Assembly (NCBI RefSeq): GCF_002237595.1
Contig: NZ_CP022529.1
Span: 2,494,117-2,518,116, forward strand
Direction: 5' to 3'
Length of the DNA stretch: 24,000 bases
Origin: Labrenzia sp. VG12
Lineage (GTDB): Bacteria > Pseudomonadota > Alphaproteobacteria > Rhizobiales > Stappiaceae
Positions 1 to 15,661 of the stretch are shown here, in pieces. Position numbers and translations under genes: made by a program. A model generated the notes under the pieces. The model was not told the DNA's origin. It was given only the letters and a program-made list of their open reading frames with translations, and did not search any database. Every line of letters begins with the position of its first letter. Positions within the stretch are counted from its first letter, which is position 1.

Positions 1-201
1 CAGTTTCCGTGAGCGGTTTCGCGCAGCAGAATGCCGGAAGACACTCATCCCGTCCGACGAAGTCACGCCTCCTGCCCGATTGAACCCACGCTCCATATCG
101 GGAGCGGTGTAGGTGACATAGTCCTGCCAGTCATCTTCCACCCACTGGCGTTCCGCGCGCGCGGACTGCAACTCGGACTTCAGGTCCTCGACGATCCCCA
201 T
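1..201 (-). CDS. Phage portal / head-tail connector protein, N-terminal fragment (runs off the window edge)
   Basis: The minus-strand frame from the ATG at 201 reads MGIVEDLKSELQSARAERQWVEDDWQDYVTYTAPDMERGFNRAGG...SVFRHSAARNRSRKL, 67 codons with no stop to position 1. Its ATG shares the A of the upstream gene's TGA (TGATG coupling). Its position after terS/terL and its N-terminal pattern fit a podovirus-type portal. The family call is from memory only. Confidence 0.5.
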   Translation of the reverse strand, partial: MGIVEDLKSELQSARAERQWVEDDWQDYVTYTAPDMERGFNRAGGVTSSDGMSVFRHSAARNRSRKL

Positions 202-428
202 CAGGCACGCCCGAGAAGTGTAACGCCCGGACGCGAGGCGCTGCCGAAATCGGGAACGCCGAGCGGGCTCGTCAGGTTGGTAGCGCGCGAACTATAGGCC
301 GCGGCCCGCCGTCGCCGGCCGTTTTCCTGAAGGTTCCTGGCCTGGCGCTGAGGATCGGGTTGCCGCGGTGGTGGCGGTGTCGGTTCCGGTTTCGGCTGCT
401 TCGCGCCGCCGCCTCCAAAGAGACACAT
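201..428 (-). CDS. Small Gly/Pro-rich phage protein (75 aa) immediately upstream of the portal
   Basis: ATG at 428 is preceded by GAAAGGAGCACCTC (strong SD). The protein starts MCLFGGGGAKQPKPEPTPPPPRQPDP and ends GVTLLGRA. As I recall, this low-complexity type occurs before portal genes in BPP-1-like/T7-like podovirus prophages. It is translationally coupled to the next ORF. Confidence 0.55.
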   Translation of the reverse strand: MCLFGGGGAKQPKPEPTPPPPRQPDPQRQARNLQENGRRRRAAAYSSRATNLTSPLGVPDFGSASRPGVTLLGRA

Positions 429-632
429 GAGGTGCTCCTTTCAGATGGTTTGGATTTGGGGTTTGGTTTCCAAAGCGCCCCCGCAAAAAAGAATGCCTCG
501 ACGGGTCAAACAATGGTGATGCGTCACCATGTGAGACGAGAACGGGTCAACGATTTTGCAGAATGGATCGTCATGGAAGGCTGAAGGCAGGACCGATGTC
601 CCGGTCATTCAGCCACACTTTTCCAAGGTAAC

Positions 633-748
633 CTTGTAAGCTCTGTTTTAGAGCTGTTTTGACGACCCGTCCAGCTTATGGACGGGTCTCAAATACTTGT
701 TTAGGCGTGACTTTTCGAAAAAACCTGTTCAATCAAAAGGCTCTGCCA
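633..748. repeat. Copy A of a ~116-bp imperfect direct repeat (partner at 9537-9652)
   Basis: Core gttttgacgacccgtcca (656-673) matches gttttgacgagcctgtcca (9561-9579). Core cttgtttaggcgtgacttttc (696-716) matches cctgtttagattgaccttttc (9602-9622). Core spacing is 40 vs 41 nt and the flanks are weakly similar. Overall identity is roughly two thirds by eye. Confidence 0.55.
664..688. repeat. Perfect 10-bp inverted repeat (gacccgtcca / tggacgggtc) with a 5-nt spacer, inside repeat copy A
   Basis: Read directly: gacccgtcca-gctta-tggacgggtc. No T-run follows on either strand, so it looks like a protein-binding palindrome or RNA hairpin rather than an intrinsic terminator. Confidence 0.6.
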
Positions 749-843
749 TTTCAGCCTTGCGCGTTGTTCGCCGATTTTTTTCAAGCAGTCCAGCGAGCGG
801 GCGCGCCTAATTGTCGAGGCCCGTTTTCACAGTCGTAATTGTC

Positions 844-1242
844 TCACTGCGGTCCGCTTTCCAACTCGAAACCTTCGTCGATCCAGCCGGTAATCCCACC
901 AGCCATGATCTTCACGGGACGTTCAAGTTCTGCGAGCCGCAATGCGCCGCGCGCCGCGCCATTGCAATGAGGCCCTGCACAATAGGTCACAAACAGGGTG
1001 TCTTCCGGCCAATGGGCAAGCTTTGATCGTATGATCTTGCCGTGCGGCAGGTTGATGGCCCCCGGGATGTGTCCCTTGGCATAAAGAGCAGGACTGCGAA
1101 CATCCAAGAGTACAAATCCGGGATCGCTTTTCAATGCATCTTGGACATCCCAGCAATCTGTCTCGAATCTGAATTCCGACGCGAAATGTTCCGCCGCCAG
1201 GGTGCTCGAGGCCGCGGGTATCTTGGTAACATTGTTGGTCAT
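844..1242 (-). CDS. Rhodanese-like sulfurtransferase domain protein (132 aa)
   Basis: ATG at 1242 follows GGAAAGGAGACCTC. The sequence includes FVLLDVRSPALYAKGHIPGAINLP and the active-site loop YCAGPHCNGAARGA. The longer ORF start at 1347 lacks an SD and adds non-homologous residues. Confidence 0.85.
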   Translation of the reverse strand: MTNNVTKIPAASSTLAAEHFASEFRFETDCWDVQDALKSDPGFVLLDVRSPALYAKGHIPGAINLPHGKIIRSKLAHWPEDTLFVTYCAGPHCNGAARGALRLAELERPVKIMAGGITGWIDEGFELESGPQ

Positions 1243-1255
1243 GAGGTCTCCTTTC

Positions 1256-1267
1256 CAGAACGTTCTG
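1256..1267. promoter_or_regulatory. Perfect 12-bp palindrome CAGAACGTTCTG in the rhodanese/ftrA divergent intergenic region
   Basis: Read directly. It lies 14-25 nt upstream of the rhodanese ATG within the 78-bp divergent spacer (1243-1320). The operator role is inferred. Confidence 0.3.
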
Positions 1268-1320
1268 TCCCGGAGGGTGATCATTGGCAACTGGCACGAA
1301 AGACGATATACGTAAAAATC

Positions 1321-2325
1321 ATGCCAAACATCTCGGTTTCCGCTCAACTGCCCCCCACGACCGCCCCAACAGGGCCGCTTGTGGTTGCCCTTGTCTATGA
1401 CGGCCTGTGCACTTTCGAGTTTGGCATCACGGCAGAAATCTTCGGCTTGACCCGGCCGGAATTCGGCAATGACTGGTACCGCTTTGCCAGCTGTGCGATC
1501 GAGGATGGCCCTTTACGGGCAGCTGGCGGACTAAGCATTTCTGCTGATCAGGGCATTGACGCCCTCGACCATGCCGACATCATTGTCGTTCCGGGCTGGA
1601 AGAGTGCTGACGCGAATATCCCTGCAAATCTCAAGGACAGGCTGGTCATCGCTCATCGGCGCGGTGCGCGGCTCGTATCGATCTGTTCTGGTGCGTTTGT
1701 TCTGGCAGCGACGGGCCTGCTCGATGGCAAGACAGCCACCACCCACTGGCGTTATGCCGAGCAGCTTCGCTCCCGTTTTCCCTCCATCACGGTGGATGAA
1801 GCATCGCTTTACCGGCTCGAAAACCGCGTTTCTACGTCAGCCGGAAGTGCGGCGGGCATCGACCTGATGCTCGAAATCATTCGGCGTGATTATGGACCGG
1901 ACAAGGCCAACAGTGTCGCAAGGCGCCTCGTTGTGCCCGCTCAGCGCCAGGGGGGACAGGCCCAGTACCTGGAACGTCCGGTTTCCTGCAGGCCAGAGAG
2001 TGCGATCGCCCCGCTCCTGGAAGATGTGCGCCGCCGGCTTTCGGAGAACTGGACAATCGAAGGCATGGCGGCGGGATGCCACATGAGCGCGCGCACCTTT
2101 CAGCGGCGTTTCATTGATGCTGTCGGCCTGACGCCGGGCGATTGGCTGACCGGAGAGCGCATCGAAGCGGCCAAGGAAATCCTCATCACAGGGCGCCAGG
2201 ACATGGAAACGGTGGCGGCACTGGTCGGCTTCGGCAGCGCGCATGCGCTACGCCACCATTTTCGAAAACGCCTTGGATTGAGCCCGACCGACTACCGGCA
2301 CTTGTTTCGCTCAGATGTAGCCTGA
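1321..2325 (+). CDS. ftrA: FtrA / GlxA-family transcriptional regulator (DJ-1/PfpI-like domain plus AraC-type HTH), 334 aa
   Basis: From the ATG at 1321: LVVALVYDGLCTFEFGITAEIFGL..., SICSGAFVLAATGLLDGKTATTHWRY, SAGSAAGIDLMLEIIR, then a C-terminal AraC HTH (ARTFQRRF...LRHHFRKRLGLSPTDYR). It matches the FtrA consensus as I remember it. The upstream in-frame extension to 1042 is antisense to the rhodanese gene. Confidence 0.85.
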   Translation: MPNISVSAQLPPTTAPTGPLVVALVYDGLCTFEFGITAEIFGLTRPEFGNDWYRFASCAIEDGPLRAAGGLSISADQGIDALDHADIIVVPGWKSADANIPANLKDRLVIAHRRGARLVSICSGAFVLAATGLLDGKTATTHWRYAEQLRSRFPSITVDEASLYRLENRVSTSAGSAAGIDLMLEIIRRDYGPDKANSVARRLVVPAQRQGGQAQYLERPVSCRPESAIAPLLEDVRRRLSENWTIEGMAAGCHMSARTFQRRFIDAVGLTPGDWLTGERIEAAKEILITGRQDMETVAALVGFGSAHALRHHFRKRLGLSPTDYRHLFRSDVA

Positions 2326-2503
2326 GCGCTGACAATGCTGCACTTCCGGCCAATCGGTATGAAGCGCTGCCACAAACACCATTCCACGAACATGACCTCA
2401 GGCAATCGTGCGCTTCCCTGACATAGGGTTAATTGCTAGACTAGTCCTCAAATATAACAGCACAAATAAAAGAGTGAAATGTCGAGACTGGCGAGGGACA
2501 GTT

Positions 2504-4330
2504 ATGGCGACAGACAAATTTCACATTTTTCTTATTCGACCAACCAAATATGACGATGACGGCTATCCGATTCATTGGCATAAAACCACAATCCCGGCCA
2601 ATTCACTTTCCTGCCTTGCAGGAATTTCTTTGGATTGCAAGGAACGGCAAGTCCTTGGTCCCGATGTGGAAATTGCGACCCGCGCCATCGATGAAGGCAA
2701 CACCCGCATTCGCCCCCACCAGATCATCCATGAGATCCGGCGCGATGGGGCACGTGGCCTGATCTGCTTCGCCGGTGTCCAGAGCAATCAGTTCCCTCGT
2801 GCCATTGACCTCGCCCAGCCGTTTCTGGCGGCAGGCCTGCCCGTCGCTGTCGGCGGATTTCATGTGACCGGCTGCATGGCAATGCTTGACGAAATGCCAA
2901 GGGACATGCGCGACGCATTGGACATGGGGGTTTCCTTTTTTCTCGGCGAGGCAGAAGGCGGGCGCTTTGACGCTGTGCTGCGAGACGCCTATGCGGGCGT
3001 CCTGAAACCGGTCTACGACTACACCAGGGATCTTCCGTCACTTCCAGGGCAACCGGTGCCTGTCGTTGAAAAGGCACAGGTAGAACAGTCGACATTGGGC
3101 TACGGCAGTTTCGATCTCGGTCGCGGGTGCCCGTTTGAATGCAGTTTTTGCTGTATCATCAATGTGCAGGGCAGAGGCAGCCGCTTTCGCTCGACCGGGG
3201 ACCTTGAGAAGATCATCAGGGATCACGCCAGGATCGGTGTCACCAAGTTCTTCGTCACGGACGACAATTTCGCACGCAACCGGAACTGGGAAGCCTTTCT
3301 CGATACGCTGATCCGGCTTCGCGAGGAAGACGGGCTCAGGTTCACCCTGATCATTCAGGTCGATACCCTGTGCCACAAGATCCCGAATTTCATAGACAAA
3401 TGCGTTAGAGCCGGTGTCGATCAGGTGTTTATCGGGCTGGAAAACATCAATCCGGACAACCTGGCCGGCTCCAAGAAAAGACAGAACAAGATCACCGACT
3501 ACCGTGAGATGTTCCTCGCTTGGAAGAAACACCCCGTGGTCCTGACCGCCGGTTACATCATCGGGTTTCCCAACGACACCCGAGAATCCGTCCTTCACGA
3601 TATCGATGTCCTCAAGCGCGAGCTTGCTGTCGACATACTCTCACTGTCGATCCTCACGCCGCTGCCAGGCTCCGAGGACCACAAGAACGCCGTGGCCGCA
3701 GGCACCTGGATCCATCCGGATCTCAATCGCTACGATTTGACCCATAGTGTGATCCGGCATCCGAACTTGCCCGGCGACGAGCTCGACAAGCTCTACATCG
3801 AAGCCTGGGCAACCTTCTATTCCCCGGACCATTGCCGCACCATCCTGCGCCGCGCGGCTGCGCTTGGAAGCAACAAGAAAATTGCGACCATGAACCGGCT
3901 GCTGATCTATGGAACCGGATCACGGCTCCACAATGTCTTTTCGCTCGACGGCGGATTCTTGCGATTGAAATACCGTCGTGACCGCCGCCCGGGTTTGCCG
4001 GTCGAAAGCCCTCTGATCTTCTATCCCAAACATGCCTTTGAAACGGTGCGCAACATTTTGCTGCTGATGCTCACACGCTGGCGTTACCTGCGCTTCATCA
4101 AGGCACTCTGGAGCGACCCCGGGCGCTTTGACTACGTGGATGCGGCCATTGCACCGGTTGGCGCGGGCGATTTCGAGAGGCTGAAACTCTACACCGCAAC
4201 AAGAGGCGGACAAGAAGCTGTTGCCAATCATCGCAAGATGGAAGCCATCAAGAAAAAGGCTCGGTCAAAAGCACTTGCCGGCACCTTAAAAACGAAAATG
4301 GGTGTCACATATCCTGGCCCGCATTCATAA
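2504..4330 (+). CDS. B12-binding-domain (class B) radical SAM enzyme, 608 aa; substrate unknown
   Basis: ATG at 2504 is preceded by GAGGGA. The N-terminal Rossmann-like region (LICFAGVQSNQF...PVAVGGFHVTG) precedes the radical SAM cluster motif GRGCPFECSFCC (CxxxCxxC). It continues with FFVTDDNF and ENINPDNL, then a ~170-aa C-terminal extension. The N-terminus IFLIRPTKYDDDGYPIHW recalls HpnR-like methylases, but that is a weak recollection. Confidence 0.85.
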   Translation: MATDKFHIFLIRPTKYDDDGYPIHWHKTTIPANSLSCLAGISLDCKERQVLGPDVEIATRAIDEGNTRIRPHQIIHEIRRDGARGLICFAGVQSNQFPRAIDLAQPFLAAGLPVAVGGFHVTGCMAMLDEMPRDMRDALDMGVSFFLGEAEGGRFDAVLRDAYAGVLKPVYDYTRDLPSLPGQPVPVVEKAQVEQSTLGYGSFDLGRGCPFECSFCCIINVQGRGSRFRSTGDLEKIIRDHARIGVTKFFVTDDNFARNRNWEAFLDTLIRLREEDGLRFTLIIQVDTLCHKIPNFIDKCVRAGVDQVFIGLENINPDNLAGSKKRQNKITDYREMFLAWKKHPVVLTAGYIIGFPNDTRESVLHDIDVLKRELAVDILSLSILTPLPGSEDHKNAVAAGTWIHPDLNRYDLTHSVIRHPNLPGDELDKLYIEAWATFYSPDHCRTILRRAAALGSNKKIATMNRLLIYGTGSRLHNVFSLDGGFLRLKYRRDRRPGLPVESPLIFYPKHAFETVRNILLLMLTRWRYLRFIKALWSDPGRFDYVDAAIAPVGAGDFERLKLYTATRGGQEAVANHRKMEAIKKKARSKALAGTLKTKMGVTYPGPHS

Positions 4331-5984
4331 CCGGCGCATTCGACGGAATTTCATCCGTGTCAGATGTCGGTGCAAAGGCCCCGCGCACATTCGCTTGGAA
4401 GCTGTTTGTCACCAAGATCTGTTCACCGATCTCATCGGTATAGGTCAGGGTCATGCGTGGGCCAAACCCTTCGTCATCGGTTCCACCCTTTTTCCAGTCG
4501 CTTCCCGTGTGCGCGTTTGGCATCAATGACCATCGCCTTGCCGTGATGCCAAGTGTTGCCAGAAGTCCCTCCACTTCCTTGCTGATGTAGTCACGGTTTG
4601 TCCCACTCGTGGCCGGGTAGACCTTTTCCACCGGGTGTTTGAACACGACACCCTTTGCCTCGGATGCAAATTCCGTCAGGCCCCATGCCATGGAAAACCG
4701 CGCGAGCGCCAACGCTTCTGCCGCGTCTTCATCGCCGCCCATATCCAGAAAACTCTGCTTCCAGAGTTTGGCATGTTCCTCCAGTGCTTCGGCTTCCTCT
4801 TCGGCGGTCAAGCCAAGTTGACGATACCGGTCGAAGGACGTTTCCCGGGCAGGAACAGCGACCGGTGGCCTTCCTGGGACCGAATGGAATGTATCAACAC
4901 CAGACCGGACGGTTTCCTGATCCAGGGCCAGCTCGACCGGCGCTGCGTCCTGAGCTGACGCGTCGGGAAAAAGCCGTGCGCTTTCGCCGCCATCTGCCTC
5001 CGGTCCCTCCGGCTCACCTGCCTCGCCGCCTGGCGTCGCTGATCCATCCAGGTAGATGAAGTAGCCGCCATATTTTCGTGCGAAATCCTTTTTCCAGGGC
5101 ATGCCCAGCGACCTGGCCGTCGCAAGCTCGCCAAGGATGGAGGACGCCAGCGCAGGATCGCTCCGATGAAGCCGGCGAATATTTTTCTCCGTTGCGCGCC
5201 AATCGACGTCACCGAAGTCTTCGGCAATGTGTTCCGGAAAGACGCTGTCTCCAAACAATTCGTCCCAGAGGCCTTCGCTACCGTTCGACGGATCCGAGCC
5301 GTCGGGAGTTCCCTGCCATGCCTCGTTCAGAATTTCGAGGGATCGGTTGGTCCTGTTGTCGAGGTCATGGATCTGCCCCTTGTGTTTCCGGACAAACCTG
5401 TCTTCAAGGCGCTGATAAACGGCGGCATAGCCAGCCGCATGTTGGCCTGCTGCATCGTCGAAATGCGTGGACAGAAACTCTGAAACCGGCCTCTCGAAGA
5501 CCCTTCTGTTTTCAAACCCGGCCGCGGGTCGGCGCCGCTCCGAAGGTGGCAGGTCCTCTTTTGTAATATTGATGTCGACAGCGGCCAGTGCGGCGGACAC
5601 GAGCCCGTTGCTGTTGACGATCCAGTCTGAGTTGACGTCGCCGATTGCTGCAAGCGTGTCGTAATCCACTTCCGACTGCTCAACCAACTGGGCGAAGAAG
5701 GCCATCTTGAGATATTTTTCTTCAAGATCCCCTCCGCTCTCCAGAACAACGGTGTCTTCCTGAGAGCGTTCGGCGGGCGGAACCCAGTCTCGCGACCGTT
5801 CCGAGTAGGGACCGATTTCCACGTCGATATTCCCGACGACGGACAGCGGCCCAGGTCCGCCCCGAATGACAAATTCTTTTCCTTCGTTATTCGTATAGAT
5901 GATGTAGAGATGCCCGAAATCCTTCGAAGCGGCATCCGTCACACGAAGCTCGATAGTTTCCATTTCAGTCTCCGAAACTGGCAT
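4305..5984 (-). CDS. Orphan 559-aa protein: conserved N-terminal ~140-aa domain, acidic low-complexity linker, C-terminal domain of unknown function
   Basis: ATG at 5984 is preceded by GGAGGCCTGTCTG. This long ORF is the only long open frame across most of this span; the other ORFs there are much shorter (202 aa or less). No signal peptide or TM segment is apparent. The N-terminal region reads GHLYIIYTNNEGKEFVIRGGPG...VDYDTL...NSNGLVSAALAAVDI. The linker GGEAGEPEGPEADGGES is acidic. The GTG at 6086 is an unlikely start. Confidence 0.7.
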   Translation of the reverse strand: MPVSETEMETIELRVTDAASKDFGHLYIIYTNNEGKEFVIRGGPGPLSVVGNIDVEIGPYSERSRDWVPPAERSQEDTVVLESGGDLEEKYLKMAFFAQLVEQSEVDYDTLAAIGDVNSDWIVNSNGLVSAALAAVDINITKEDLPPSERRRPAAGFENRRVFERPVSEFLSTHFDDAAGQHAAGYAAVYQRLEDRFVRKHKGQIHDLDNRTNRSLEILNEAWQGTPDGSDPSNGSEGLWDELFGDSVFPEHIAEDFGDVDWRATEKNIRRLHRSDPALASSILGELATARSLGMPWKKDFARKYGGYFIYLDGSATPGGEAGEPEGPEADGGESARLFPDASAQDAAPVELALDQETVRSGVDTFHSVPGRPPVAVPARETSFDRYRQLGLTAEEEAEALEEHAKLWKQSFLDMGGDEDAAEALALARFSMAWGLTEFASEAKGVVFKHPVEKVYPATSGTNRDYISKEVEGLLATLGITARRWSLMPNAHTGSDWKKGGTDDEGFGPRMTLTYTDEIGEQILVTNSFQANVRGAFAPTSDTDEIPSNAPVMNAGQDM

Positions 5985-6113
5985 CAGACAGGCCTCCGGC
6001 AAACGATGGTGCCGAACAGCAAATGACGTCGTTGAATCAACGCGAAGTCGTGAGGGTTTCCGGGAAAGCGTGATGCGCTGCTTCACTCACAGCGTGCCTT
6101 GGGCGGAACGTTT

Positions 6114-6341
6114 TTAGTACCGTCCTGCCAACTCTTGAGAGCAGTTGATCGGCTGAAGGACCTTGCTCCTACCCGGCTGATAGCTGAGAAAAACCTGCAG
6201 GACTACATCTAGCGGCTTTGCGAGTTGGTCTCGTTTCGCGTCGACATCGCAGCCCCGCTCCCGCAGGAAGTAAAACATCACCGGTGCGCATGTTGGTCTC
6301 GGCCCGATGACCGGTTCATCAAATAGAGCGTGCGGTTTCAA
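6114..6341 (-). CDS. Hypothetical 75-aa ORF (TTG start) between the 4-TM gene and the 559-aa gene
   Basis: The open frame starts 7 nt after the TGA of the upstream membrane gene and has the same orientation. There is no recognisable motif and no clear SD. An internal ATG (MFYFLRERG...) is also possible. It may not be coding. Confidence 0.3.
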   Translation of the reverse strand: MKPHALFDEPVIGPRPTCAPVMFYFLRERGCDVDAKRDQLAKPLDVVLQVFLSYQPGRSKVLQPINCSQELAGRY

Positions 6342-6347
6342 CCAACT

Positions 6348-6755
6348 TCAAACCAGCGAGAAGGCGGCAAGGGCGGCGGCTTGAAACACGCAGTAAAGCA
6401 GCAGCACAGAGAGTATGCGTCTTATCCATGTCACTCTTGCAGCCCTGCGCGGATAGCACAGGGCCAACTGGAGAAGACTGAGTACAACGTCGGCTAAAAA
6501 AAACGCAATTACGTAATTCCGGTAATCGTTAAACAAAAGAGAAATAAGGTCGCGATCAAAAAAGATACAAAGGTACAAATAGAGAAAAAAAGTGGTGCTC
6601 AACCCAACAAAACTGTCAGAAAGGCGACCGATCTTGGAAGTGTCAGGCCCCAGCACCAGGCGGACATTGAGATAAACTCTGAATAGAAGTGACACGGGCC
6701 AGAAAGCCAGGAACCCAAAATACGCAACAACCTGCAGATACTCGAGCCATTCCAT
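6348..6755 (-). CDS. Small integral membrane protein, about 4 predicted TM helices (135 aa)
   Basis: Four hydrophobic stretches: VVAYFGFLAFWPVSLLF, GLSTTFFLYLYLCIFF, YVIAFFLADVVLSLLQLAL and ILSVLLLYCVFQAAALAAF. The gene is markedly AT-rich (e.g. 6480-6620) compared with its neighbours. No family was recognised. Confidence 0.7.
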   Translation of the reverse strand: MEWLEYLQVVAYFGFLAFWPVSLLFRVYLNVRLVLGPDTSKIGRLSDSFVGLSTTFFLYLYLCIFFDRDLISLLFNDYRNYVIAFFLADVVLSLLQLALCYPRRAARVTWIRRILSVLLLYCVFQAAALAAFSLV

Positions 6756-6883
6756 CGCTTTTACCGTTCACATACCTTTGCAGCTCAGTTCCAGCGCCTC
6801 GCCGTCATAACGCCACTGCCAGAGCCAATACATGTTCTCCAATTGTTCCATTGCAATAAATCACAGCATCAAACGCATTGCAC

Positions 6884-7336
6884 CTAAAAATTGTCCTGCT
6901 CCCCACCACGCGCACCGTCGCTCCCGGTCCAGGCATAGATCAGGAAGTCTTCGCCGCCCCGGCCGTAGGACTTGAGCCGGCCTTCCCGTTCCGCCCCAAG
7001 TGCCTCAATCCAGCGATGGGCAATATCGTGCCCACACATCGTGATCACCTGAAGTCGCCGGCAATCACGTTCAATCTGCGGGCGCAACGACAGGATATGC
7101 CGCGTGATCAGCGGCACACAGCGCTTGAATCGCGCTGTTCCAAAAGCCCAGGCCTGCCAGTGTTGCGGATCGAAAGCCGACGCCTGGCTGAAGCCGAAGG
7201 CTGCCGCCGGCTGGCCGTCATACCAGACTGACCAGACCATGCCTGGCACTGCCGTCTCGATCGCGCAGACACCCAGGGCGCGCGTGTCCCAGACCTCCCA
7301 GAGACACGAGATTTCCTCAAAATCCTGCTGACGCAT
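6884..7336 (-). CDS. Phage-associated 150-aa protein downstream of terL (possible GNAT-like fold; function unknown)
   Basis: ATG at 7336. A CTG at 7384 overlapping the terL stop would add LIKDLCLRDVSYIAAN, which looks like part of the domain, so the start is uncertain. The pattern W..WYDGQPAAAFGF...W.AWAFGT...RWIEALGAE...GEDFLIYAW recalls small proteins that follow terminase genes in podovirus prophages. The ORF-track version (to 7747) overlaps terL and is an artefact. Confidence 0.6.
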   Translation of the reverse strand: MRQQDFEEISCLWEVWDTRALGVCAIETAVPGMVWSVWYDGQPAAAFGFSQASAFDPQHWQAWAFGTARFKRCVPLITRHILSLRPQIERDCRRLQVITMCGHDIAHRWIEALGAEREGRLKSYGRGGEDFLIYAWTGSDGARGGEQDNF

Positions 7337-7380: not shown

Positions 7381-8961
7381 TCAGAAGCCGCCGAGGGGAT
7401 CGTCCAGCGGCTTCATCTGGCTTCGGCCGGTGTTCGTCAGAATTTTTTTCAGGTCCGCCCTGTCTTTCCATCCCCATGCCTCGACCATCGCATCGGCTTC
7501 GTCCGGCGACGCACCGAGCCGTTCCTTGATGTCTTCCTTGCTCTCGATCAGGATCCGGCCGCCCTTCATCTTCCAGCGATGCGCCGTCAGCTGCGCCTTG
7601 ATCGTGGCGGAGCGCCTGATCGCGACCCCCGCCCCGCTTTTGGGGTGAAGCGCCTCGCGAAACCGCCAGTAAAGCTGGGCCCGCAGATTGTAGAAGGGAA
7701 TGCGGCTGTCTTTCGCGGTCTCGCCGGACTGGGCGGAAAAGACGCATTTTTCGACAGGAATACCGTTCTCACGGGTCAGAAATCCGACCGTATCTCCACC
7801 CCAGCCGCCGGTACAGTCGACCACGATCAGCGCATTGTCCCTCCGCTCCCGGATGATTAGCGCACCGACATCCGCTCCATCCTTGGTATCAGCCCCCTTG
7901 CGGACGATATTCTGTTCAAACCGCCGGCCGTGCAAAGGCTGCAGGACAGTCTTGTCCTTACCACCCTGCGCAACATCCACAGCCAGCACATCCATCGGCT
8001 GGTCCTTGTCGACATTCTCGTCATAGCGCTGAAAGGCCAGGTCAACCCAGTCGGACGGGATCACCTGCCAATCATGATCCTGTCGGGCGGCCAGAAAATC
8101 GCCGGTCTTCAGCGCGGTCCGCATCGGCTCCGGCATCTGGTCGAGCTGCGCATCATAGTCAGCGCCCAGAAACTTGTTGTCCTGCCGCCGTGCGGGAATG
8201 AAGGTGCGGCTTTTCGGCGTGCGCAATTCGCCCTCGATCTCGACCGGTTCCGGCCCGTCAACCCAGACGGTTCGAATGGCGTCGCCATCGTCGATGAAAA
8301 CGGCCCAGAGCAGGTCTCCGGGCTTGACCTTGCCATGGAGCGGGTGAAGCGGGTCAAGCCAGGGTCCGAACCAGTCACTCAGATAATCACCCTGTCCACC
8401 AATTGGCGGATTGGTAGCGATCAGGCCACGGCAACGTTGTCCCATCCGGCTGCTGCGCAGCCAGCCGAGCACAAAGATGATCTTGCGCGGGTCCATCTGC
8501 GCCCCTTCATCGAAGGCCTTCAGGTCATGGTCGCGCCCTTGCCAGTCTTCTTCAGAACCAGGCAGCCCCAGATGACCGAACTCGATCAGGCGTTCGTCCG
8601 GGCCAACCCAGCGTGGCGGATTTCCGGTGATCTTTCCCATCTCCGCCTGCCGCATCAGCGCGTTCATGCGTTCGATCAGCCCCTTCAGTGATTTTAGTGA
8701 TTGCCGGAAGATGGCGGCCTTGTGATGGGCGAACAGCGCCAGGCCGGCGATCAGGTCCGTTTTGCCACCACCGGCGGCACCACCATAGAGTGTCAGATCA
8801 GCCTTTGAGAAATAGCCGTCCGTCTGGGGGCCATGTTGCGGCCGCCAGACGTCGAACTGATCCAGAACCCCGGCTTCATCCAATTTCTTTTGCAGGGCGA
8901 CACGATTGGGTGGCTCCATCCTGTCAATGGTTCTGATCAGTGTTTCCAGAGCCGTCGTCAT
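7381..8961 (-). CDS. terL: Phage terminase large subunit (526 aa)
   Basis: Walker A-like motif LYGGAAGGGKTDL near the N-terminus. A C-terminal nuclease-domain pattern is present (VDVAQGGKDKTVL, IVVDCTGGWG, PDEADAMV). Size and position after terS fit. The start could instead be M15 at 8919. Confidence 0.9.
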   Translation of the reverse strand: MTTALETLIRTIDRMEPPNRVALQKKLDEAGVLDQFDVWRPQHGPQTDGYFSKADLTLYGGAAGGGKTDLIAGLALFAHHKAAIFRQSLKSLKGLIERMNALMRQAEMGKITGNPPRWVGPDERLIEFGHLGLPGSEEDWQGRDHDLKAFDEGAQMDPRKIIFVLGWLRSSRMGQRCRGLIATNPPIGGQGDYLSDWFGPWLDPLHPLHGKVKPGDLLWAVFIDDGDAIRTVWVDGPEPVEIEGELRTPKSRTFIPARRQDNKFLGADYDAQLDQMPEPMRTALKTGDFLAARQDHDWQVIPSDWVDLAFQRYDENVDKDQPMDVLAVDVAQGGKDKTVLQPLHGRRFEQNIVRKGADTKDGADVGALIIRERRDNALIVVDCTGGWGGDTVGFLTRENGIPVEKCVFSAQSGETAKDSRIPFYNLRAQLYWRFREALHPKSGAGVAIRRSATIKAQLTAHRWKMKGGRILIESKEDIKERLGASPDEADAMVEAWGWKDRADLKKILTNTGRSQMKPLDDPLGGF

Positions 8962-9415
8962 CTCCCGGCAGATCCTTTGCGGTCAGAAGTGCCATCACGC
9001 CCAGCGCGATTTCATTCGAACTTCGTGGTTTCAACGCCTCGAGCCGTCCAGCGTCGTCCGGCCCAGCCAGGATGTTCCAGCTTTCCAGCTCCGAACGGTC
9101 CCGCCACCCGGCCCGGTTCTTCATGTTCAGCGCCCAGGCACTGGCGTTGAACTTTGGCAACTCGCCCTGGCTGCCAGCCTTGCCAATACGTTCCCACTCC
9201 AGAAGCCCGCGCCGTGCGGCCGCTTCAAGTTGTTCAGCTGGAAAATCCTCCGGGAACTGCTCCGCGTAGTACCGAAGGGTCTTGCGGTCCGCACCTGGAA
9301 AGCTGTCGATCGAAAAACCGGCGGCAATATGGTCGCAGAATGCGCTGCAAGCCCGCCGCCTGTCTTCCGGTGTCGGCCATGGCAGCGCGCAAGCGCCGCT
9401 GCCCATTTGAGCCAT
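8924..9415 (-). CDS. terS: Phage terminase small subunit (163 aa)
   Basis: ATG at 9415 follows GAGGTGACGC. N-terminal HTH-like region (RRRACSAFCDHIAAGFSIDSFPGADRKTLRYYAEQFP) and WALNMKNRAGWRDRSE are typical of terS. It overlaps the terL start by 38 nt. Confidence 0.7.
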   Translation of the reverse strand: MAQMGSGACALPWPTPEDRRRACSAFCDHIAAGFSIDSFPGADRKTLRYYAEQFPEDFPAEQLEAAARRGLLEWERIGKAGSQGELPKFNASAWALNMKNRAGWRDRSELESWNILAGPDDAGRLEALKPRSSNEIALGVMALLTAKDLPGDDDGSGNTDQNH

Positions 9416-9536: not shown

Positions 9537-9652
9537 CTTGATAAGACCTCTTATAGCTCCGTTTTGACGAGCCTGTCCAATCACCTGAACCAACTGAACC
9601 ACCTGTTTAGATTGACCTTTTCAGTTTGCTCTGACCAATCAGGACCTTGGCA
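9537..9652. repeat. Copy B of the ~116-bp imperfect direct repeat (partner at 633-748)
   Basis: See copy A. Copy B lacks the second arm of the palindrome and instead has a tandem 8-mer, ctgaacca-a-ctgaacca (9585-9601). It lies about 120 nt upstream of the terS start on the minus strand. Confidence 0.55.
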
Positions 9653-9845: not shown

Positions 9846-11069
9846 GTGCCCGTCTTGGCCGACCCTTCCAACATCTCCCGGCGCATGTCCCTGAGTGCAG
9901 TGGTTCAGGCGATTGCCAGCTACAGCCCGATCTCCCGCGCAAGCGTGTCCAAGATCACCGGCCTGTCCAAGCAGACCGTGTCGGAGATTGTCGGCAATCT
10001 GGAAGAAGAAGGCTGGGTCAGGACCGTTGGGCAAACCGAAGGCCATGTCGGTCGCCGGGCTGTCGTCTACGAGATCGTGCCGGAGGCCGCCTCTGTGGCA
10101 AGTGTTGATCTCGGCGGCACCAAGATCCGCGTCGCCATCTGCAACTTGACCGGCGCCGTTGTCTCCGAACTGGTGGAACCGACCGACAAGGCCGGCGGCA
10201 AGGCGGTGATCGATCAGGTCGCCGATCTGATCCGTCGCACGGCCGCCCAGGCCGGAACCACCGCGAAACTCCCGCGTGTTGCAGTGATCGGCGTCCCGGG
10301 CGCCCCTGACCGGGAAACCGGCAACATCCGCATGGCGCCGAATATTCCCGGCATCGGCGAACTCGATGCACCGGCCCTTTGGCGCGACGCACTCGGCATC
10401 GAGGTCTTTGTCGAAAACGACGTCAATCTCGCCGCGCTTGGCGAACACTGGCTGACCAAACGCAGCGACAAGGACGACCTGATCTACGTCTCCATCGGCA
10501 CCGGCATCGGCGCAGGCATCGTTATTGGCGGTCAGCTCCATCGCGGACTGAACGGGGCTGCCGGTGAGATCGGCTATCTGCCCTTCGGCGCCGATCCCTT
10601 CGAGCCGGAGAGCCTGGAAACCGGCGCCCTGGAACGGGTCGCCGCCACACACGCCATTACGGAACTCTACGCCCGGAAAACCGGCAGGAGCCTCGACGTG
10701 CCCGCCATTTTCGAAGCCGCCAATGACGGTGACACGGCCGCGTCCGAAACCCTTGACCAGACAGCCCGCCAGGCGGCGCGCGTCATGGCAGCCCTGGCAG
10801 CCGTGCTCGACCCGTCCTGCATCGTCATCGGCGGCTCCATCGGTGCGCGCTATGAATTGTTTTCAAGGGTGGAAAATCAGCTGAAGGCCTGTTTTCCCCG
10901 CCCAGTCCTGATTGAAAAGTCAACGCTCGGCAATCATGCCGCACTTGCCGGTGGCGCCTCCGTCGCCCTTTCCCGCCTGCACCTGTCCCTTTTCACCGAG
11001 GGATTGAAAGGGGTGGAAATCGCCGTGCCGCCCCCTTCCATCGAGACGTTCAGGAAGGGAGCAGCCTGA
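9846..11069 (+). CDS. ROK-family transcriptional regulator (N-terminal wHTH plus sugar-kinase-like domain), 407 aa
   Basis: wHTH region SRASVSKITGLSKQTVSEIVGNLEEEGWV, then ASVDLGGTKIRVA (DxGxT) and SIGTGIGAGIV...GAAGEIG. The canonical ROK Zn motif (GH...CxCGxxGCxE) is replaced by GYLPFGADPFEPESLETGALE, which has no Cys. The start is GTG 9846 or TTG 9855 (GAGG at 9843-9846). The stop overlaps the next ATG (TGATG). Confidence 0.85.
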   Translation: MPVLADPSNISRRMSLSAVVQAIASYSPISRASVSKITGLSKQTVSEIVGNLEEEGWVRTVGQTEGHVGRRAVVYEIVPEAASVASVDLGGTKIRVAICNLTGAVVSELVEPTDKAGGKAVIDQVADLIRRTAAQAGTTAKLPRVAVIGVPGAPDRETGNIRMAPNIPGIGELDAPALWRDALGIEVFVENDVNLAALGEHWLTKRSDKDDLIYVSIGTGIGAGIVIGGQLHRGLNGAAGEIGYLPFGADPFEPESLETGALERVAATHAITELYARKTGRSLDVPAIFEAANDGDTAASETLDQTARQAARVMAALAAVLDPSCIVIGGSIGARYELFSRVENQLKACFPRPVLIEKSTLGNHAALAGGASVALSRLHLSLFTEGLKGVEIAVPPPSIETFRKGAA

Positions 11070-12327
11070 TGAGCTCTGAGTTTCTTCAAACACTGAGCGA
11101 TCATCAGGACCGGGACGCGGACCTGAAACTGCTGCAAGAGGCCATAGGCCATGAAAGCATCACCGGCAATGAAACCGACTTTGCCTCTTTCCTGAAGAGC
11201 CGGATGGACGAACTCGGCCTGCAAACCGGATCGGGTGACTTTCTGCCCGGACGTCTTAATGTCTGGGGGAAACAAAAGCAGCCCGTGCGGACGCAAAACG
11301 GCTCCTGTTTGTCGGCCACACCGACACAGTCCACGTCCGTGGCTGGCAAGACAATTGGTCGGGCAAACCGCAGGAGAACCCGTTTTCGGGTGCGCTGATC
11401 GATGGCCACATCTGGGGTCGGGGCGCTTGTGATCTGAAGGGCGGTATCTGTGCGGCGCTGGCCGGCTTGCGCCTGTTGCAATCGGCAGGCCACCAACCTG
11501 CAGGCGGCCTCTCCTTTGCCTTTATCGGCGACGAGGAAAGCGGAGAACCCGGAACGGGCGTCAGCGCCGGAGCCCACGACCTTGTCAAACGCATCCAAGC
11601 CGGCGAAATCGCCAAACCCGATTTCGCAGTCTATGTCGAACCGACAAAGCTCGACGTCTATACCGCGCAGATCGGCTTTTTCATTGCAGATATCACCATC
11701 ACCGGAAAATCCGCCTATTTTGGCACACCGGAGCTTGGCACCGACGCCCTGAAAGCCACCCACGCCATCCTCGAACAGATCTGGGCGCATGAGGCTGACC
11801 TGACCGCCGGGCCGAAACACGACCTGGTCGGCGCATCGTCGGTCCTTGTGACGGATATCCGCGGCGGCGGCTACATCGCCGTGCCCGGCGAATGCCGCTT
11901 TTCCCTGATCCGCAAGTTACGCCCCGGCGAAGATCTGAACGAGGCCGTTGCGGCACTGGAAACTGTCATCCACGCAGCTCCCGTTGCCGACGGCATATCC
12001 CTTCAGATCGACTATCCCGCAGGCCGGGACCACAAATTCGGCGGTTCCCCGGTCGAGATTGCCCATGACCATCCGGATGCGCGGCTGCTGGCGCGCTGCA
12101 TCGGTGAGGTCCATGAACCGGGAGGCGCCCTTGGCGGCGCACCCTATTGGTCGGAAATGCCGTTTCTCGTCAACGAGATCGGCTGTCCGGCGGTTTACTG
12201 CGCTCCGGGCGACATCGCCCTGGCGCACACATTCGAAGAGCGCATCGAGGTGGAAAGCTACCTGGCAGCTGTCAGGGCTTTTGCGCTGTTCGTGGCCGAA
12301 TTTTGCGGCCTGGAAGAAGCACGGTAA
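11069..12327 (+). pseudogene. M20-family metallopeptidase / deacylase (ArgE/DapE/CPG2-like) with a broken reading frame
   Basis: The N-terminal 67 codons (MSSEFLQTL...GRLNVWG) are in one frame. The rest (ETKAARADAKRLLFVGHTDTVHVRGW...GRGACDLKGG...FIGDEESGE... to 12327) is in another. The junction is at the G5 run 11265-11269; one more G would give a continuous ~419-aa M20 protein. Confidence 0.8.
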
Positions 12328-12352
12328 CAACCAACAACCAGAGGGTACCGAC

Positions 12353-13423
12353 ATGAAATCTGCAGCAAGACACCTGGCGGCTTCCGCCCTGTTCACACTG
12401 ATGAGCGTCACCGCTCTGTCTCCCGCCGCCATGGCCCAGACCGTCGGCCCGGGCGGGGAAAGTGCGACGCCGTCCGCCGACGTCGTCGTCGGCGATGACA
12501 GCCTGGAGGCGATCCGCGGCGCGGGCTACAAGGCGGCCCTGCTCTGGCACGACCAGTCCGATTTCGTCAACGCCGTCAGCGCCGGTGCAAAGGACGAATT
12601 CGAGCGGCTCGGCATCGAGGTAGTGGCCACCACCAGTGCCGGCTTTGACGCCGCCAAGCAGCGCAGCGACATCGAAACCTCGCTTGCCAAGGAACCGAAC
12701 ATCATTCTGTCGCTGCCGCTCGACCCGGTCACTTCCGCGGCAGCCTTCAAGGAAGCCCGTGACGGTGGGGTCTCTCTGGTGTTTCTCTCAAATCTGCCGG
12801 CCGGATACGAGCATCCGCGCGACTATGCCGCCATTGTCACCGACGATCTTTTCCAGATGGGCAAGCAGGCCGCCGACGCCCTGGCAAGCGCCATGGGCGG
12901 CAAGGGCACCGTCGGCTGGATCTATCATGACGCCGACTATTACGTGACCAACCAGCGGGACAACGCCTTCAAAACGACGATCGAAAAGGACTATCCGGAA
13001 ATCTCCATCGTCGCCGAACAGGGCATCAGCGATCCGGCCCGCGCCGAAGAGATTGCCAACGCGATGCTTTTGAAGAACCCGGATCTCGGCGGCATCTATG
13101 TCACCTGGGCAGGTCCTGCGGAAGGTGTGCTCGCGGCCCTGCGCGCCAATGGCAACAAGACCACGAAAATCGTCACGCTCGATCTGTCTGAGCCGGTCGC
13201 ACTCGACATGGTCCGGGGCGGCAATGTCGCTGCCATCGTCGCCGATGAAGCCTATGAGCTTGGCCGAGCCATGGCAGCCGCCGCAGCGCTTCGTCTTGCC
13301 GGCAAGGATGTGCCGCCTTTCGTGACAGCGCCTGCCATCACCGTGACCGCCGACACGGTGGTCGAGGGATGGAAAAAGTCGCTCAACATCGACGCGCCGG
13401 CAAGCGTTTCCTCCGCGCAGTGA
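12353..13423 (+). CDS. ABC transporter periplasmic substrate-binding protein, sugar/RbsB-FrcB type (356 aa)
   Basis: ATG at 12353 follows GAGGG. Signal peptide MKSAARHLAASALFTLMSVTALSPAAMA. The body is PBP type I-like (ALLWHDQSDFVNAV..., VTDDLFQMGKQAADAL). Confidence 0.85.
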   Translation: MKSAARHLAASALFTLMSVTALSPAAMAQTVGPGGESATPSADVVVGDDSLEAIRGAGYKAALLWHDQSDFVNAVSAGAKDEFERLGIEVVATTSAGFDAAKQRSDIETSLAKEPNIILSLPLDPVTSAAAFKEARDGGVSLVFLSNLPAGYEHPRDYAAIVTDDLFQMGKQAADALASAMGGKGTVGWIYHDADYYVTNQRDNAFKTTIEKDYPEISIVAEQGISDPARAEEIANAMLLKNPDLGGIYVTWAGPAEGVLAALRANGNKTTKIVTLDLSEPVALDMVRGGNVAAIVADEAYELGRAMAAAAALRLAGKDVPPFVTAPAITVTADTVVEGWKKSLNIDAPASVSSAQ

Positions 13424-13433
13424 CCGGCAATAC

Positions 13434-13455
13434 GGCGGGCAGCTCTCTGCCCGCC
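13434..13455 (+). other. Intercistronic GC stem-loop between the SBP and permease genes
   Basis: ggcgggcag-ctct-ctgcccgcc: a 9-bp perfect stem with a 4-nt loop, starting 11 nt after the SBP stop. No T-tract follows. It is likely an mRNA-stabilising or attenuating hairpin rather than a full terminator. Confidence 0.4.
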
Positions 13456-13483
13456 GGCACTTCCTTGCAGCAAAGAGACTGAC

Positions 13484-14437
13484 ATGACCACCATCGCAGC
13501 GCGCCTGCAGCGCCTCGATCTGCAGCGCTCCGTAATTTATCTCGGCTTTCTGGCGATCTTCCTGTTCTTCGCGATCACGCTTCACGATGACGGCTTCCTG
13601 ACCAGCCGGAACCTGACCAACATTGTTCTTCAGACGGCTCCCGCCACCATCATGGCCATCGGTCTTGTCTTTGCGCTGTCAGCCGGAGAGATCGATCTCA
13701 GTTTCGGCTCGGTGGTGGCCGTGTCCGCGCTTTCCGCCGCCGTTGCCATGCAATCCTACCCGATGGTCGTCGGCGTCATGGCCGGTCTCGGTGCAGGTGC
13801 GCTCATCGGCGCAATCAACGGTGTCCTGGTCGCCTATCTGCGCCTGCCGTCTTTCTTGGTCACGCTCGCAACCATGGGCCTGTTCGCGGGGATTGCACGG
13901 TCCATGACAGATCTCCGCTCCATCCCTGTGCTCAATGACACCTTCACCGGCATTTTCGGCTCGGGCGCCCTGTTTTCTATTCCCTCGCTGGTCCTCTGGA
14001 CCATCGCCGCTGTCATTATCGGCCACATTGTCTATCGCAACACGCGCTTTGGCGCGCATGTGCTGGCGACCGGCGACAATGCCCGTGCCGCGCAGGTCTC
14101 CGGCATCAAGGTGCCACGCATTCGTCTCAGCGTGCTCATGCTTTGCGGCACGATGGCCGGCCTCGCCGGATTGCTCTATGCCGGCCGTCTTCAGGCCGCA
14201 AAATACACGCTGGGGGAAAGCGATCTGATGACCGTGATTGCCGCGGTCATTGTCGGCGGCACGGCGCTTAATGGCGGCAAGGGCTCGATCATCGGCGCGC
14301 TCCTGGGCTCGCTGCTGATGGGCATGCTCAACAATGGCCTCATCCTGATGGGCCTTGATGTTTCGGACCAGATGATCGTCCGCGGGCTCATCATTCTCAT
14401 TGCCGTCGCCGTCTCCCTGCGCGACACCAGCCGGTAA
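13484..14437 (+). CDS. ABC transporter permease, RbsC/FrcC type (317 aa)
   Basis: Multi-TM protein with typical CUT2 permease motifs: LSAGEIDLSFGS, GGTALNGGKGSIIGALLG, LILMGLD. Confidence 0.9.
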   Translation: MTTIAARLQRLDLQRSVIYLGFLAIFLFFAITLHDDGFLTSRNLTNIVLQTAPATIMAIGLVFALSAGEIDLSFGSVVAVSALSAAVAMQSYPMVVGVMAGLGAGALIGAINGVLVAYLRLPSFLVTLATMGLFAGIARSMTDLRSIPVLNDTFTGIFGSGALFSIPSLVLWTIAAVIIGHIVYRNTRFGAHVLATGDNARAAQVSGIKVPRIRLSVLMLCGTMAGLAGLLYAGRLQAAKYTLGESDLMTVIAAVIVGGTALNGGKGSIIGALLGSLLMGMLNNGLILMGLDVSDQMIVRGLIILIAVAVSLRDTSR

Positions 14438-14449
14438 CCGGAGCTTCCC

Positions 14450-15661
14450 ATGTTTCTAGACACCCTGATCCGCCGTAACCCGGCCTTCATCGAAGCGGCG
14501 ATGGCTCTTCACCAGCAAGGCAAGATCCCGGCCAATACCTATGTGCTCGATCTTGACGCGGTGGAAGACAATGCCCGGCTTTTTCAGACCGAAGCGGCCA
14601 AACATGGCCTGAAAACCTTCGCCATGACCAAGCAGGTTGGCCGCCATTCCGGTTTCTGCCAGGCGGTCCAGAAAGGCGGCATCGACCGGTCGGTCGCCGT
14701 CGACATGGCCTGTGCGCTTGCCTGCGACCGTGCTGGTCTCAAGACTGGTCATCTTGGCCATCTGGTTCAGATCCCCCGCCGGGAAGCCGCCTTTGCAGCC
14801 GCAAAACTGCAGCCAGACTACTGGACGGTCTTTTCCGATACCAAGGCCGCGGAAGCGGCCGGCGCGGCACAAGCAGCCGGGCGCGTCCAGAAACTCCTGG
14901 CCCGCATTCAGACCGAAGGCGACACCTTCTACCGCGGACACGAGGGCGGTTTCGCAGCGGAAGACATAGTCGCGGTGGCAGCAAGGCTGGACGCGCTTGA
15001 CGGCGCAGCGTTTGCAGGTATCACCACCTTCCCGGCCCTGCTCTTTGATCTGGAGACCCGCAAGGTCAAACCCACCCCCAACCTTGCCACGCTTAGCCGG
15101 GCCGCCGACGCGCTGGCCAGATCCGGCCGCACCGGCATCGAGATCAATGCTCCGGGCACCACCTCCTCCGCGGTTCTCGGCGCCCTTTCCGAAGCCGGTG
15201 CAACCCAGTGCGAACCCGGCAATGGCCTTCATGGCACGACGCCCCTCCATGCGGTGGAAGACCTGCCGGAGAACCCGGCGGTGCTTTATCTTTCAGAAGT
15301 CTCGCACCACCATGGCGGCAAGGCCTATTGTTTTGGCGGCGGGCTTTACATCGATCCGGTGTTTCCGAAATATCAGGTGCAGGCCCTGGTCTCCGCCGAA
15401 CCGACCGCCAGCCGCTCCGCGCTGCGTGACGTCGAGATCCCGGACTATTCGGCTATCGACTATTACGCCATGATCGACGCGATTGGCCCTAAACCGCCGG
15501 CACCCGGAGACACGGTTGTTTTCGGCTTTCGCGGCCAGGCCTTTGTCACACGCGCACTTGTTGCCGGCATCTCCGGTATCAGCAGCGGAAATCCGGTCGT
15601 AACAACCATCGAGAACAGCTTTGGCGATCTCGTCAGCTGGCCGGGAGTGCACCAGCAATGA
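14450..15661 (+). CDS. YhfX-like PLP-dependent enzyme (alanine racemase N-terminal, fold type III barrel family), 403 aa
   Basis: GGAG lies 6 nt upstream of the ATG. NPAFIEAAMALHQQGKIP...YVLDLDAV...FAMTKQVGRH...GHLGHLVQIP...EPGNGLHGTTP...YCFGGGLY matches my recollection of E. coli YhfX along the whole length. The Lys in MTKQ is the likely PLP lysine. Confidence 0.7.
   Translation: MFLDTLIRRNPAFIEAAMALHQQGKIPANTYVLDLDAVEDNARLFQTEAAKHGLKTFAMTKQVGRHSGFCQAVQKGGIDRSVAVDMACALACDRAGLKTGHLGHLVQIPRREAAFAAAKLQPDYWTVFSDTKAAEAAGAAQAAGRVQKLLARIQTEGDTFYRGHEGGFAAEDIVAVAARLDALDGAAFAGITTFPALLFDLETRKVKPTPNLATLSRAADALARSGRTGIEINAPGTTSSAVLGALSEAGATQCEPGNGLHGTTPLHAVEDLPENPAVLYLSEVSHHHGGKAYCFGGGLYIDPVFPKYQVQALVSAEPTASRSALRDVEIPDYSAIDYYAMIDAIGPKPPAPGDTVVFGFRGQAFVTRALVAGISGISSGNPVVTTIENSFGDLVSWPGVHQQ

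Follow-up and report, generated by a model that had tools for sequence, protein, structure and literature searches.

Why should a block of non-phage genes lie between the packaging genes and the portal gene of a phage? The question is raised by a stretch of 24,000 nucleotides from the genome of Labrenzia sp. VG12, a single contig of 5.98 Mb with 59.9% GC; this stretch (positions 2494117-2518116) is called the window here, and its numbering is used unless another is given. An earlier note on this DNA had remarked that two terminase genes and a gene for a 150-residue protein run in minus-strand order from 9415 to 6884, that phage genes resume only at 428, and that the interposed block (429-6883) might be cargo, a mark of domestication or an undescribed accessory system. 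We conclude that the block very probably represents accessory cargo in the gap between two operons of an old, locus-fixed, podovirus-derived element, whose particle genes have decayed in this genome while the cargo has stayed intact. Below, G000 denotes the source genome, other G numbers related genomes of the same genus, and L numbers the stretches or contigs that were fetched.

The phage genes on both sides of the block stand as had been described. On the minus strand a putative terS, for the small terminase subunit (8924-9415), precedes terL, for the large subunit (7381-8961), and p150 (6884-7336) is the last gene of this terminase group. The terL product matches phrog_979 (E 8e-28) and phrog_2 and is 40% identical to bbp25 of the Bordetella phage BPP-1; p150 belongs to phrog_308, an "internal virion protein" family (E 6e-12). 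Family searches gave no match for terS, which is assigned by its position upstream of terL in all elements; p150 likewise lies 3' of terL in all related elements, and its real start may be further upstream, overlapping terL. On the other side of the block, p75 (201-428, minus strand) encodes a Gly/Pro-rich protein of 75 residues (phrog_831, E 3e-7) and is the first gene of the structural group. It is followed by the first 67 codons of a T7/BPP-1-type portal gene (1-201, minus strand) that runs beyond the window; its match to PF12236 is weak, and it has 99% amino-acid identity to the intact 567-residue portal of G085. The stop codon of p75 and the start codon of the portal gene overlap as TGATG, the coupling noted earlier, and p75 is directly 5' of the portal gene in all related elements. 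The ratio of non-synonymous to synonymous substitution rates (dN/dS) is 0.06-0.09 for terL and 0.05-0.10 for p75.

Within the block there are five real genes rather than the six open reading frames (ORFs) first listed. A single-domain rhodanese (844-1242, minus strand; PF00581, E 3e-17; called at 132 residues in G085) is divergent from FtrA (1369-2325, plus strand), an AraC-type regulator with a DJ-1/PfpI domain that scores 458.5 bits against NF006902 (cut-off 425) and contains PF01965, PF12833 and PF00165. Downstream of FtrA, in the same orientation, is a 608-residue radical S-adenosylmethionine enzyme, rSAM (2504-4330, plus strand; PF04055, E 2.6e-14); ftrA and rSAM are both read antisense to the phage late genes. 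The other two genes have the orientation of the phage genes. They are orf559 (4305-5984, minus strand; 552 residues from the second methionine), a modular protein without a family match, whose 3' end converges on that of rSAM with an overlap of 26 nt, and tm135 (6348-6755, minus strand), a small multi-pass membrane protein of 135 residues without family or PADLOC match. The sixth ORF (75 aa, 6114-6341, minus strand, with a TTG start) has no family match, is uncalled in the contigs L025 and L026, and has its similarity broken across two frames in G085; since it is not kept in this 92%-identical relative, it is probably spurious. The AT-rich patches reported previously are real but modest, with a GC content of 0.50 at 2201-2600 and 0.47 at 6401-6800, in a block that averages 0.558 against 0.61-0.65 in the flanking phage genes. 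A transposon or insertion-sequence origin was considered and rejected, neither a transposase nor flanking direct or inverted repeats having been found, and no tRNA gene or att site was found in the approximately 31 kb made up of G000 2474117-2494116 and 2492617-2505216.

Does the block then belong to the phage element? Two contigs located through orf559 homologues, one from Logan (92% amino-acid identity) and one from a Joint Genome Institute (JGI) metagenome (67% for orf559), contain the whole block at the same position, and both have an intact 567-residue portal and 291-residue scaffold. The Logan portal is 100% identical to that of G085, and over the collinear part, from window position -5365 to 16182, G085 and the Logan contig are 92-93% identical to G000 in nucleotide sequence. 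In G085, as in the JGI contig, the block adjoins intact portal, scaffold and capsid genes, tm135 being in its usual place, and the G085-type element further encodes a major capsid protein, tail tubular proteins A and B, a gp14-like protein, a collagen-like fibre, a holin, a lysozyme and spanins. Judged by these sequence comparisons, the block is real cargo carried by a phage-derived element, which was one of the two possibilities held out at the start. The G085 element, otherwise intact, also has a transposase-like ORF fragment (L047:5106-5369) between its tail-fibre accessory gene and its holin gene.

The same junctions between block and phage genes recur in three independent assemblies, which rules out a chimeric assembly. 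They also bear on the idea that host DNA was trapped between two prophage fragments by rearrangement or mis-assembly, an idea to which the host-type character of the rhodanese, FtrA and many other genes found at this site, the chromosomal FtrA-rhodanese pairs in the other half of the genus, and the missing repeats and transposase all lend some colour. Nevertheless, both flanks keep the orientation and order that they have in relatives where they are contiguous, different fillings occur between the same two genes in 25 elements, and the element-type FtrA is a lineage separate from the chromosomal type, with which it shares 48-55% identity. Together with the shared junctions, these facts make trapping scarcely credible.

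A further indication of what this site is comes from its variability. The portal family was located in 29 of the 71 other genomes of the genus, and the p150-p75 region, which we refer to as the slot, was fetched for 25 elements. In four of them (G019, G024, G022 and G017:C4) the distances from p150 to p75 are, in ascending order, 221, 252, 421 and 590 bp, so the genes on the 6884 side and the 428 side are nearly adjacent in some relatives, and BPP-1 is free of any gap here; the statement that non-phage genes split a packaging-to-portal series is thereby borne out. In the other elements the slot holds 1.2-10.8 kb, and nowhere else does the element family vary as much. Clustering of the slot ORFs gave 28 families that re-assort among elements, a table that under-counts small genes because the codon-usage gene caller missed short or atypical ones (p75, the rhodanese, p150). 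With remnant loci included in the counts, the rhodanese-FtrA pair occurs in about 11 loci and rSAM in about nine, while the orf559 family (F0) is present in most elements, often adjoining p75. The remaining content includes host-type genes for an APH phosphotransferase, AraC, PpoB2, DUF899, GST, HxlR, an AzoR-like flavodoxin, LysR, LysE and a PEP-mutase-family protein. Flanks that are adjacent in relatives and a content that varies between conserved flanks are two hallmarks of an accessory hotspot.

This pattern speaks directly to two other explanations. The first is that the block is a conserved core module of the phage type, belonging between terminase and portal. Homologues of the same genes at the same position, which the earlier note had named as the sign of such a module, do exist in elements with intact structural genes, but they are confined to a sub-lineage, which makes the block lineage-specific cargo. 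Given the slots of 221-590 bp in four elements, the unrelated genes in many others and the three small unrelated genes that BPP-1 has at this place, a core module can be discounted almost entirely. The second explanation, also put forward in the note, is that the six ORFs are one undescribed accessory or defence system carried by the phage, in which rSAM, orf559, the membrane protein and the regulator cooperate. The whole block is indeed kept as a unit in G085 and in the 67%-identity JGI contig, all of its genes are under purifying selection, the ends of rSAM and orf559 overlap, and the rSAM core has a weak PADLOC match to PDC-M51A (E 3e-7). That match, however, is limited to the generic rSAM core; PADLOC assigned no specific defence model to any block protein, and the other five proteins had no match. 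Moreover, the parts travel separately. The rSAM gene occurs without FtrA in G009, G071, G072 and G053 (in G009, G071 and G053 it adjoins p150 with neither orf559 nor tm135), FtrA-rhodanese occurs without rSAM in G003, G069, G060, G045, G061 and G065 (in G061 on its own), genes of the orf559 family are found elsewhere upstream of terS or after capsid or internal-virion genes, and tm135 is confined to G000, G085 and the JGI contig (L026). Since the modules occur independently, the block is better described as a mosaic, and a single cooperating system is quite improbable.

If the block is a mosaic of cargo, why is it at this place? A conserved promoter-like element lies ahead of p75 (600-715, minus strand) and has an operator-like inverted repeat just upstream; in the window its core, at 646-673, is TGGAC-N3-TCGTCAAAAC-N4-CTAAAA. 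The general core motif, TGGAC-N3/4-TCGTCAAAAC-N3/4-GCTAAAA, reads as a pair resembling -35 and -10 boxes. An element of about 100 nt is conserved some 240 nt upstream of p75 in G000, G017:C4, G003 and G009, and all clade-A elements that were scanned have the core motif ahead of p75 (clade A being those with portals of 82-100% amino-acid identity). The motif scan revealed a second copy upstream of terS (9549-9579, minus strand), and G053 has a third after its capsid gene. Copies ahead of both p75 and terS point to two separate operons, with the slot as the gap between them. There would thus be a terminase operon (terS-terL-p150) and a structural operon (p75-portal-scaffold-capsid-tail-lysis), each headed by the same promoter-like motif, and the gap between the two would tolerate insertions.

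The slot is not the only variable region in these elements; scaffold|capsid and capsid|tail also vary. Just left of the window, between the scaffold gene and the position of the capsid gene, G000 has a gene for a glucosaminidase of 325 residues (PF01832; L002:15935-16912, G000 2490054-2491028, minus strand). Over roughly its final 40 residues it is similar to the C-terminal end of the scaffolding protein (58% over 38 residues), and other genes of the scaffold|capsid slot in related elements have the same C-terminal segment, possibly a tag that directs packaged proteins to the capsid.

The phage ORFs flanking the block had been thought intact, and inside the window they are; outside it they are not. 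Compared with G085, the G000 portal gene has a TGG to TGA change at codon 94, about 80 nt past the window edge, a 41-nt deletion at codons 390-403 and a GAG to TAG change at codon 498, and its scaffold gene is frameshifted by a 13-nt deletion. None of these lesions is a homopolymer error; they are nonsense substitutions or deletions of several bases. A further 12.4 kb is absent from G000, from the middle of a 338-residue Ntox44-like gene through the capsid, tail, fibre and lysis genes; homologues of the major capsid, tail and lysis genes were found nowhere else in the whole genome, so that no complete particle gene set is present. A 179-residue ORF with a weak Ntox44 match (L002:14601-15140, G000 2488720-2489256) is the 5' part of the 338-residue gene of G085. 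At the former right end of the element there are deletion scars (16499-17434, no strand assigned) where G085 has 11.9 kb and 2.3 kb that include the genes for a DUF6362 protein, o90, an S24 repressor and o106; a 345-bp relic of this control module persists at 16743-17087, and no homologue of the module was found anywhere in the G000 genome. The particle-forming part of the element is dead in G000.

The five cargo genes, in contrast to the particle genes, have no lesions. Between G000 and G085 the dN/dS values are 0.13 for rSAM, 0.14 for ftrA and 0.11 for the rhodanese, at synonymous divergences (dS) of 0.14-0.32; across the elements at large dN/dS is 0.02-0.2 for cargo and late genes alike, with dS above 1 and hence saturated. 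With the particle genes decayed and the cargo intact under purifying selection, the cargo has outlived its vehicle. One could argue instead that the block genes are functionless leftovers, intact merely because the decay is recent: G000 and G085 are close enough that little time has elapsed, terL and terS are also intact although useless without a portal or capsid, and rSAM itself has become a pseudogene in G072 and is reduced to a fragment in G055. Yet at least five lesions and two to three large deletions are found in the particle genes nearby and none in the five cargo genes. Two remnant loci (G046 and G055) have kept terS-terL-p150 and FtrA-rhodanese while losing everything from portal to lysis, and G000 has neither another rhodanese of this type nor a close FtrA. 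We therefore consider the leftover explanation unlikely, although it deserves to be kept in mind.

FtrA proteins of the element type share 68-100% identity among themselves and only 48-55% with the chromosomal FtrAs of the genus, and the genomes that have one contain no further close copy of FtrA. On these identities the cassette is a long-standing companion of the element and not a recent capture. The rhodanese of the block is the sole such gene in the G000 genome, with a dN/dS of 0.04-0.11.

The rSAM gene occupies the same slot in eight further elements (dN/dS 0.07-0.13), and a chromosomal paralogue with 52% amino-acid identity lies at G000 1773075-1774841; orthologues of it are present, frequently as several copies, in the majority of the genomes of the genus. 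The protein had been called a class B radical SAM enzyme. Its radical SAM core is not in question, with the cluster motif CPFECSFC (CxxxCxxC) seen in the translation; the class is unproven, since no B12-binding Pfam domain was detected at E <= 0.01 and some 200 N-terminal residues are without Pfam assignment. Matches to B12-dependent radical SAM families are weak (45-55 bits) and run through the core, and the closest solved relative is AprD4 (E 2e-15).

In the case of orf559, the description of the block as devoid of structural phage character proved wrong. Its C-terminal domain (about residues 380-540) recurs at the C-terminus of proteins of some 880-1040 residues that have phage lysozyme, tail-lysozyme or M15 peptidase domains, and the lysozyme-bearing ones look like phage virion proteins; RTX-repeat proteins have a counterpart of its N-terminal domain (residues 8-145) at their own N-termini. 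The closest named homologues are from Roseibium sp., and homologues occupy several positions across related elements, where the family is a regular component. In some cases up to six family ORFs of about 160 residues, which match the C-terminal domain only, stand in tandem. Beside p75 in G069, G060 and G073 (L034, L036 and L030), for example, there are three to six consecutive ORFs of about 156-162 residues, all homologous to that domain, and each array is followed by a family member of 750-800 residues. A C-terminal domain like that of lysozyme-bearing internal virion proteins suggests that orf559 is probably loaded into particles, and the protein would then be a particle-associated, possibly ejected, effector-like one.

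Taken together, the block may be viewed as three modules: the divergent pair of rhodanese and FtrA with rSAM downstream, orf559, and tm135. The first would be a self-contained unit expressed from the chromosome, with FtrA as its local AraC-type regulator, probably acting in sulfur/thiol or small-molecule chemistry. The second would be the two-domain protein destined for particles.

What kind of element carries this cargo? The family is found in at least 20 species, is under strong purifying selection and occupies a single locus that has azoR/DUF2336 on one side and an AraC/DJ-1 gene (window 17424-18386) on the other; in the 16 genomes where a clade-A portal shares a contig with DUF2336, all of these portals are 5.6-50 kb from azoR/DUF2336. 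Every rpoB clade with good support is found again in a terL tree (Mantel r 0.68, p = 2e-4), and because dS is saturated the co-divergence of element and host rests on this congruence of trees and not on rates. On the host side of the G000 element, the segment at about 2479860-2488711 (window -14257 to -5405) is only 73-83% identical to G085, as compared with 92% for the element and 90-96% for more distant flanks, a pattern that points to replacement of the segment or to a tract of recombination.

The family keeps a control module that would place it under a LexA-type repressor: o106 and a LexA-type S24 repressor, followed by o90 and a DUF6362 protein in divergent orientation. In G053, G003, G060 and G069 the module is found at most about 1.3 kb upstream of terS; it is also present in G042 and G061, and in G085, G046, G055 and G067 it is 10-19 kb upstream of terS. 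In G000 the interval is taken up by a plus-strand locus identified through Pfam, with a ROK regulator, a sugar ABC transporter and a YhfX-like gene (9846-16461). The same locus lies between control module and terS in G085, G046 and G055, a position that makes it cargo of another slot, and it is absent in G079, whose locus has no late genes. The notion that terS marks the end of the prophage, next to host DNA, was rejected because in G085, G046 and G055 the control module lies another 17-19 kb beyond it. We also rejected G079 as a clean empty site, its locus being rearranged with a control-module relic still in place. In G067 most of the slot between control module and terS is filled by the gene for a 1731-residue repeat protein, adhesin-like by eye (L029:783-5978).

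No tyrosine integrase was found near the elements of G085, G067, G053 and G065, and the interiors of G053, G085 and G067 were found to consist of nothing but the control module, the late and lysis genes and cargo. G017:C1, which is more distantly related, has the look of a complete prophage, with a weak integrase match and about 10 kb between the repressor and DUF6362 genes; the clade-A elements have neither the integrase nor this 10-kb interval. The lack of recognised integrase and replication genes, the single locus and the co-divergence with the host also fit the other possibility initially entertained, that of domestication. A scan of IMG/VR gave prophages predicted in isolate genomes, a metagenome fragment of 16.9 kb (terL 79%) and distant metagenome contigs (terL 35-37%), and no complete free-virus genome of the clade was recognised.

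The late genes have a clear counterpart in BPP-1 (a Rauchvirus) and other T7-like late modules, which share the order terS-terL-small genes-portal-Bbp19-like-scaffold-capsid-tail tubular A/B-gp14-like; in BPP-1 itself it is terS, terL, three small genes, portal, Bbp19, scaffold, capsid and tail, gap-free. PF12236, PF25181 and PF24072 are all present in the elements. The relationship is a distant one, with identities of 40% for terL, 22% for the portal and 30% for tail protein A and no BLAST match for p150 or p75 in the BPP-1 stretch compared. Clade-A elements lack a primase, methylase or integrase region, whereas BPP-1 is without cargo between terL and portal.

Accessory genes at such sites are a known feature of phages, as in the morons of lambda-type phages and the variable cargo hotspots of P2/P4-like prophages. 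Here too, non-essential genes separate conserved modules where one operon ends and the next begins, some of them run against the late genes, and the content varies among otherwise collinear relatives. The differences are that regulator and detoxification genes of host type, and not genes for defence or virulence, make up most of the cargo, that it can reach 10.8 kb per slot, that each element has several slots (upstream of terS, p150|p75, scaffold|capsid and capsid|tail), and that the carrier is not a self-replicating phage.

A second comparison is with gene transfer agents (GTAs), to which four attributes have been ascribed: residence in a cellular genome with vertical co-diversification, the absence of autonomous replication, the packaging of host DNA in amounts smaller than the locus itself, and delivery (Kogay et al. 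2022, PMC9662315). Two of these are seen in the element family, which is resident and co-diversifying and in which no replication or integration genes were found. Like GTAs (PMC9662315), the elements are phage-derived, consist only of late genes and a repressor module, have a fixed locus, co-diversify with the host and are under purifying selection. Unlike GTAs, their late module is podovirus-like, and many lineages, G000 among them, have decayed. The same likenesses extend to the PBSX-type defective prophages. We know of no described GTA that is podovirus-like, and none turned up in the literature that was looked at, which was not a systematic survey.

It is perhaps tempting to go further and to see the family as a living, vertically inherited, repressor-controlled and podovirus-derived particle factory, a GTA- or PBSX-like "viriform" in one subclade of the genus, with the inter-operon gaps as landing pads for host-type genes. 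Element length is about 37 kb in G053 and reaches, cargo included, about 49 kb in G085; the latter exceeds the 42.5-kb genome of BPP-1, which suggests that the element may be unable to package itself. As about a quarter of the loci, G000 included, show decay, we put this forward as a tentative possibility that may well be wrong, and not as our main claim. That claim, of accessory cargo in an inter-operon gap of an old element, has several points weighing against it as well. A generic scan for promoters and terminators gave sites no more frequent than in shuffled sequence, so that the conserved motif alone supports the operon boundaries. No specific family assignment was reached for rSAM. An AlphaFold2 model of orf559 built from five sequences had a confidence (pLDDT) of 44 and was uninformative, and a profile of the C-terminal domain found no match among PDB sequences. 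The functions ascribed to the cargo derive from family names alone, the saturated dS precludes rate-based dating of the element against its host, and the statement that replication genes are missing from the enumerated interiors of G053, G085 and G067 is subject to the limited annotation of small ORFs. Finally, decay is also seen in G054, G065, G072, G060, G012, G046 and G055.

On the reading that we prefer, that of cargo in an old, eroded element, 17 kb of seemingly mixed phage and host gene order would be explained as a single eroded element with several cargo slots, and the FtrA-rhodanese-rSAM genes, orf559 and tm135 would be what selection has kept. Accessory genes in a phage-derived cluster are a known phenomenon; the setting, a locus-fixed, podovirus-derived element of late genes only, with several cargo slots, is an unusual one. 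Were the more ambitious view of a functional particle factory to be true, the landing-pad genes would be FtrA-rhodanese-rSAM, the detoxification genes and the sugar-uptake locus, the most frequently transferred DNA might be the cargo adjoining terS, and this would be, to our knowledge, the first GTA-like element of podovirus type and the first to have cargo slots built in. The family is thus a candidate for a new type of GTA or for a defective-phage "particle factory", and it offers a natural system for the study of how host genes are recruited into phage-derived clusters. The proteins of the orf559 family are a further lead, and so are those with a scaffold-like C-terminus, a feature that may mark the cargo loaded into capsids.

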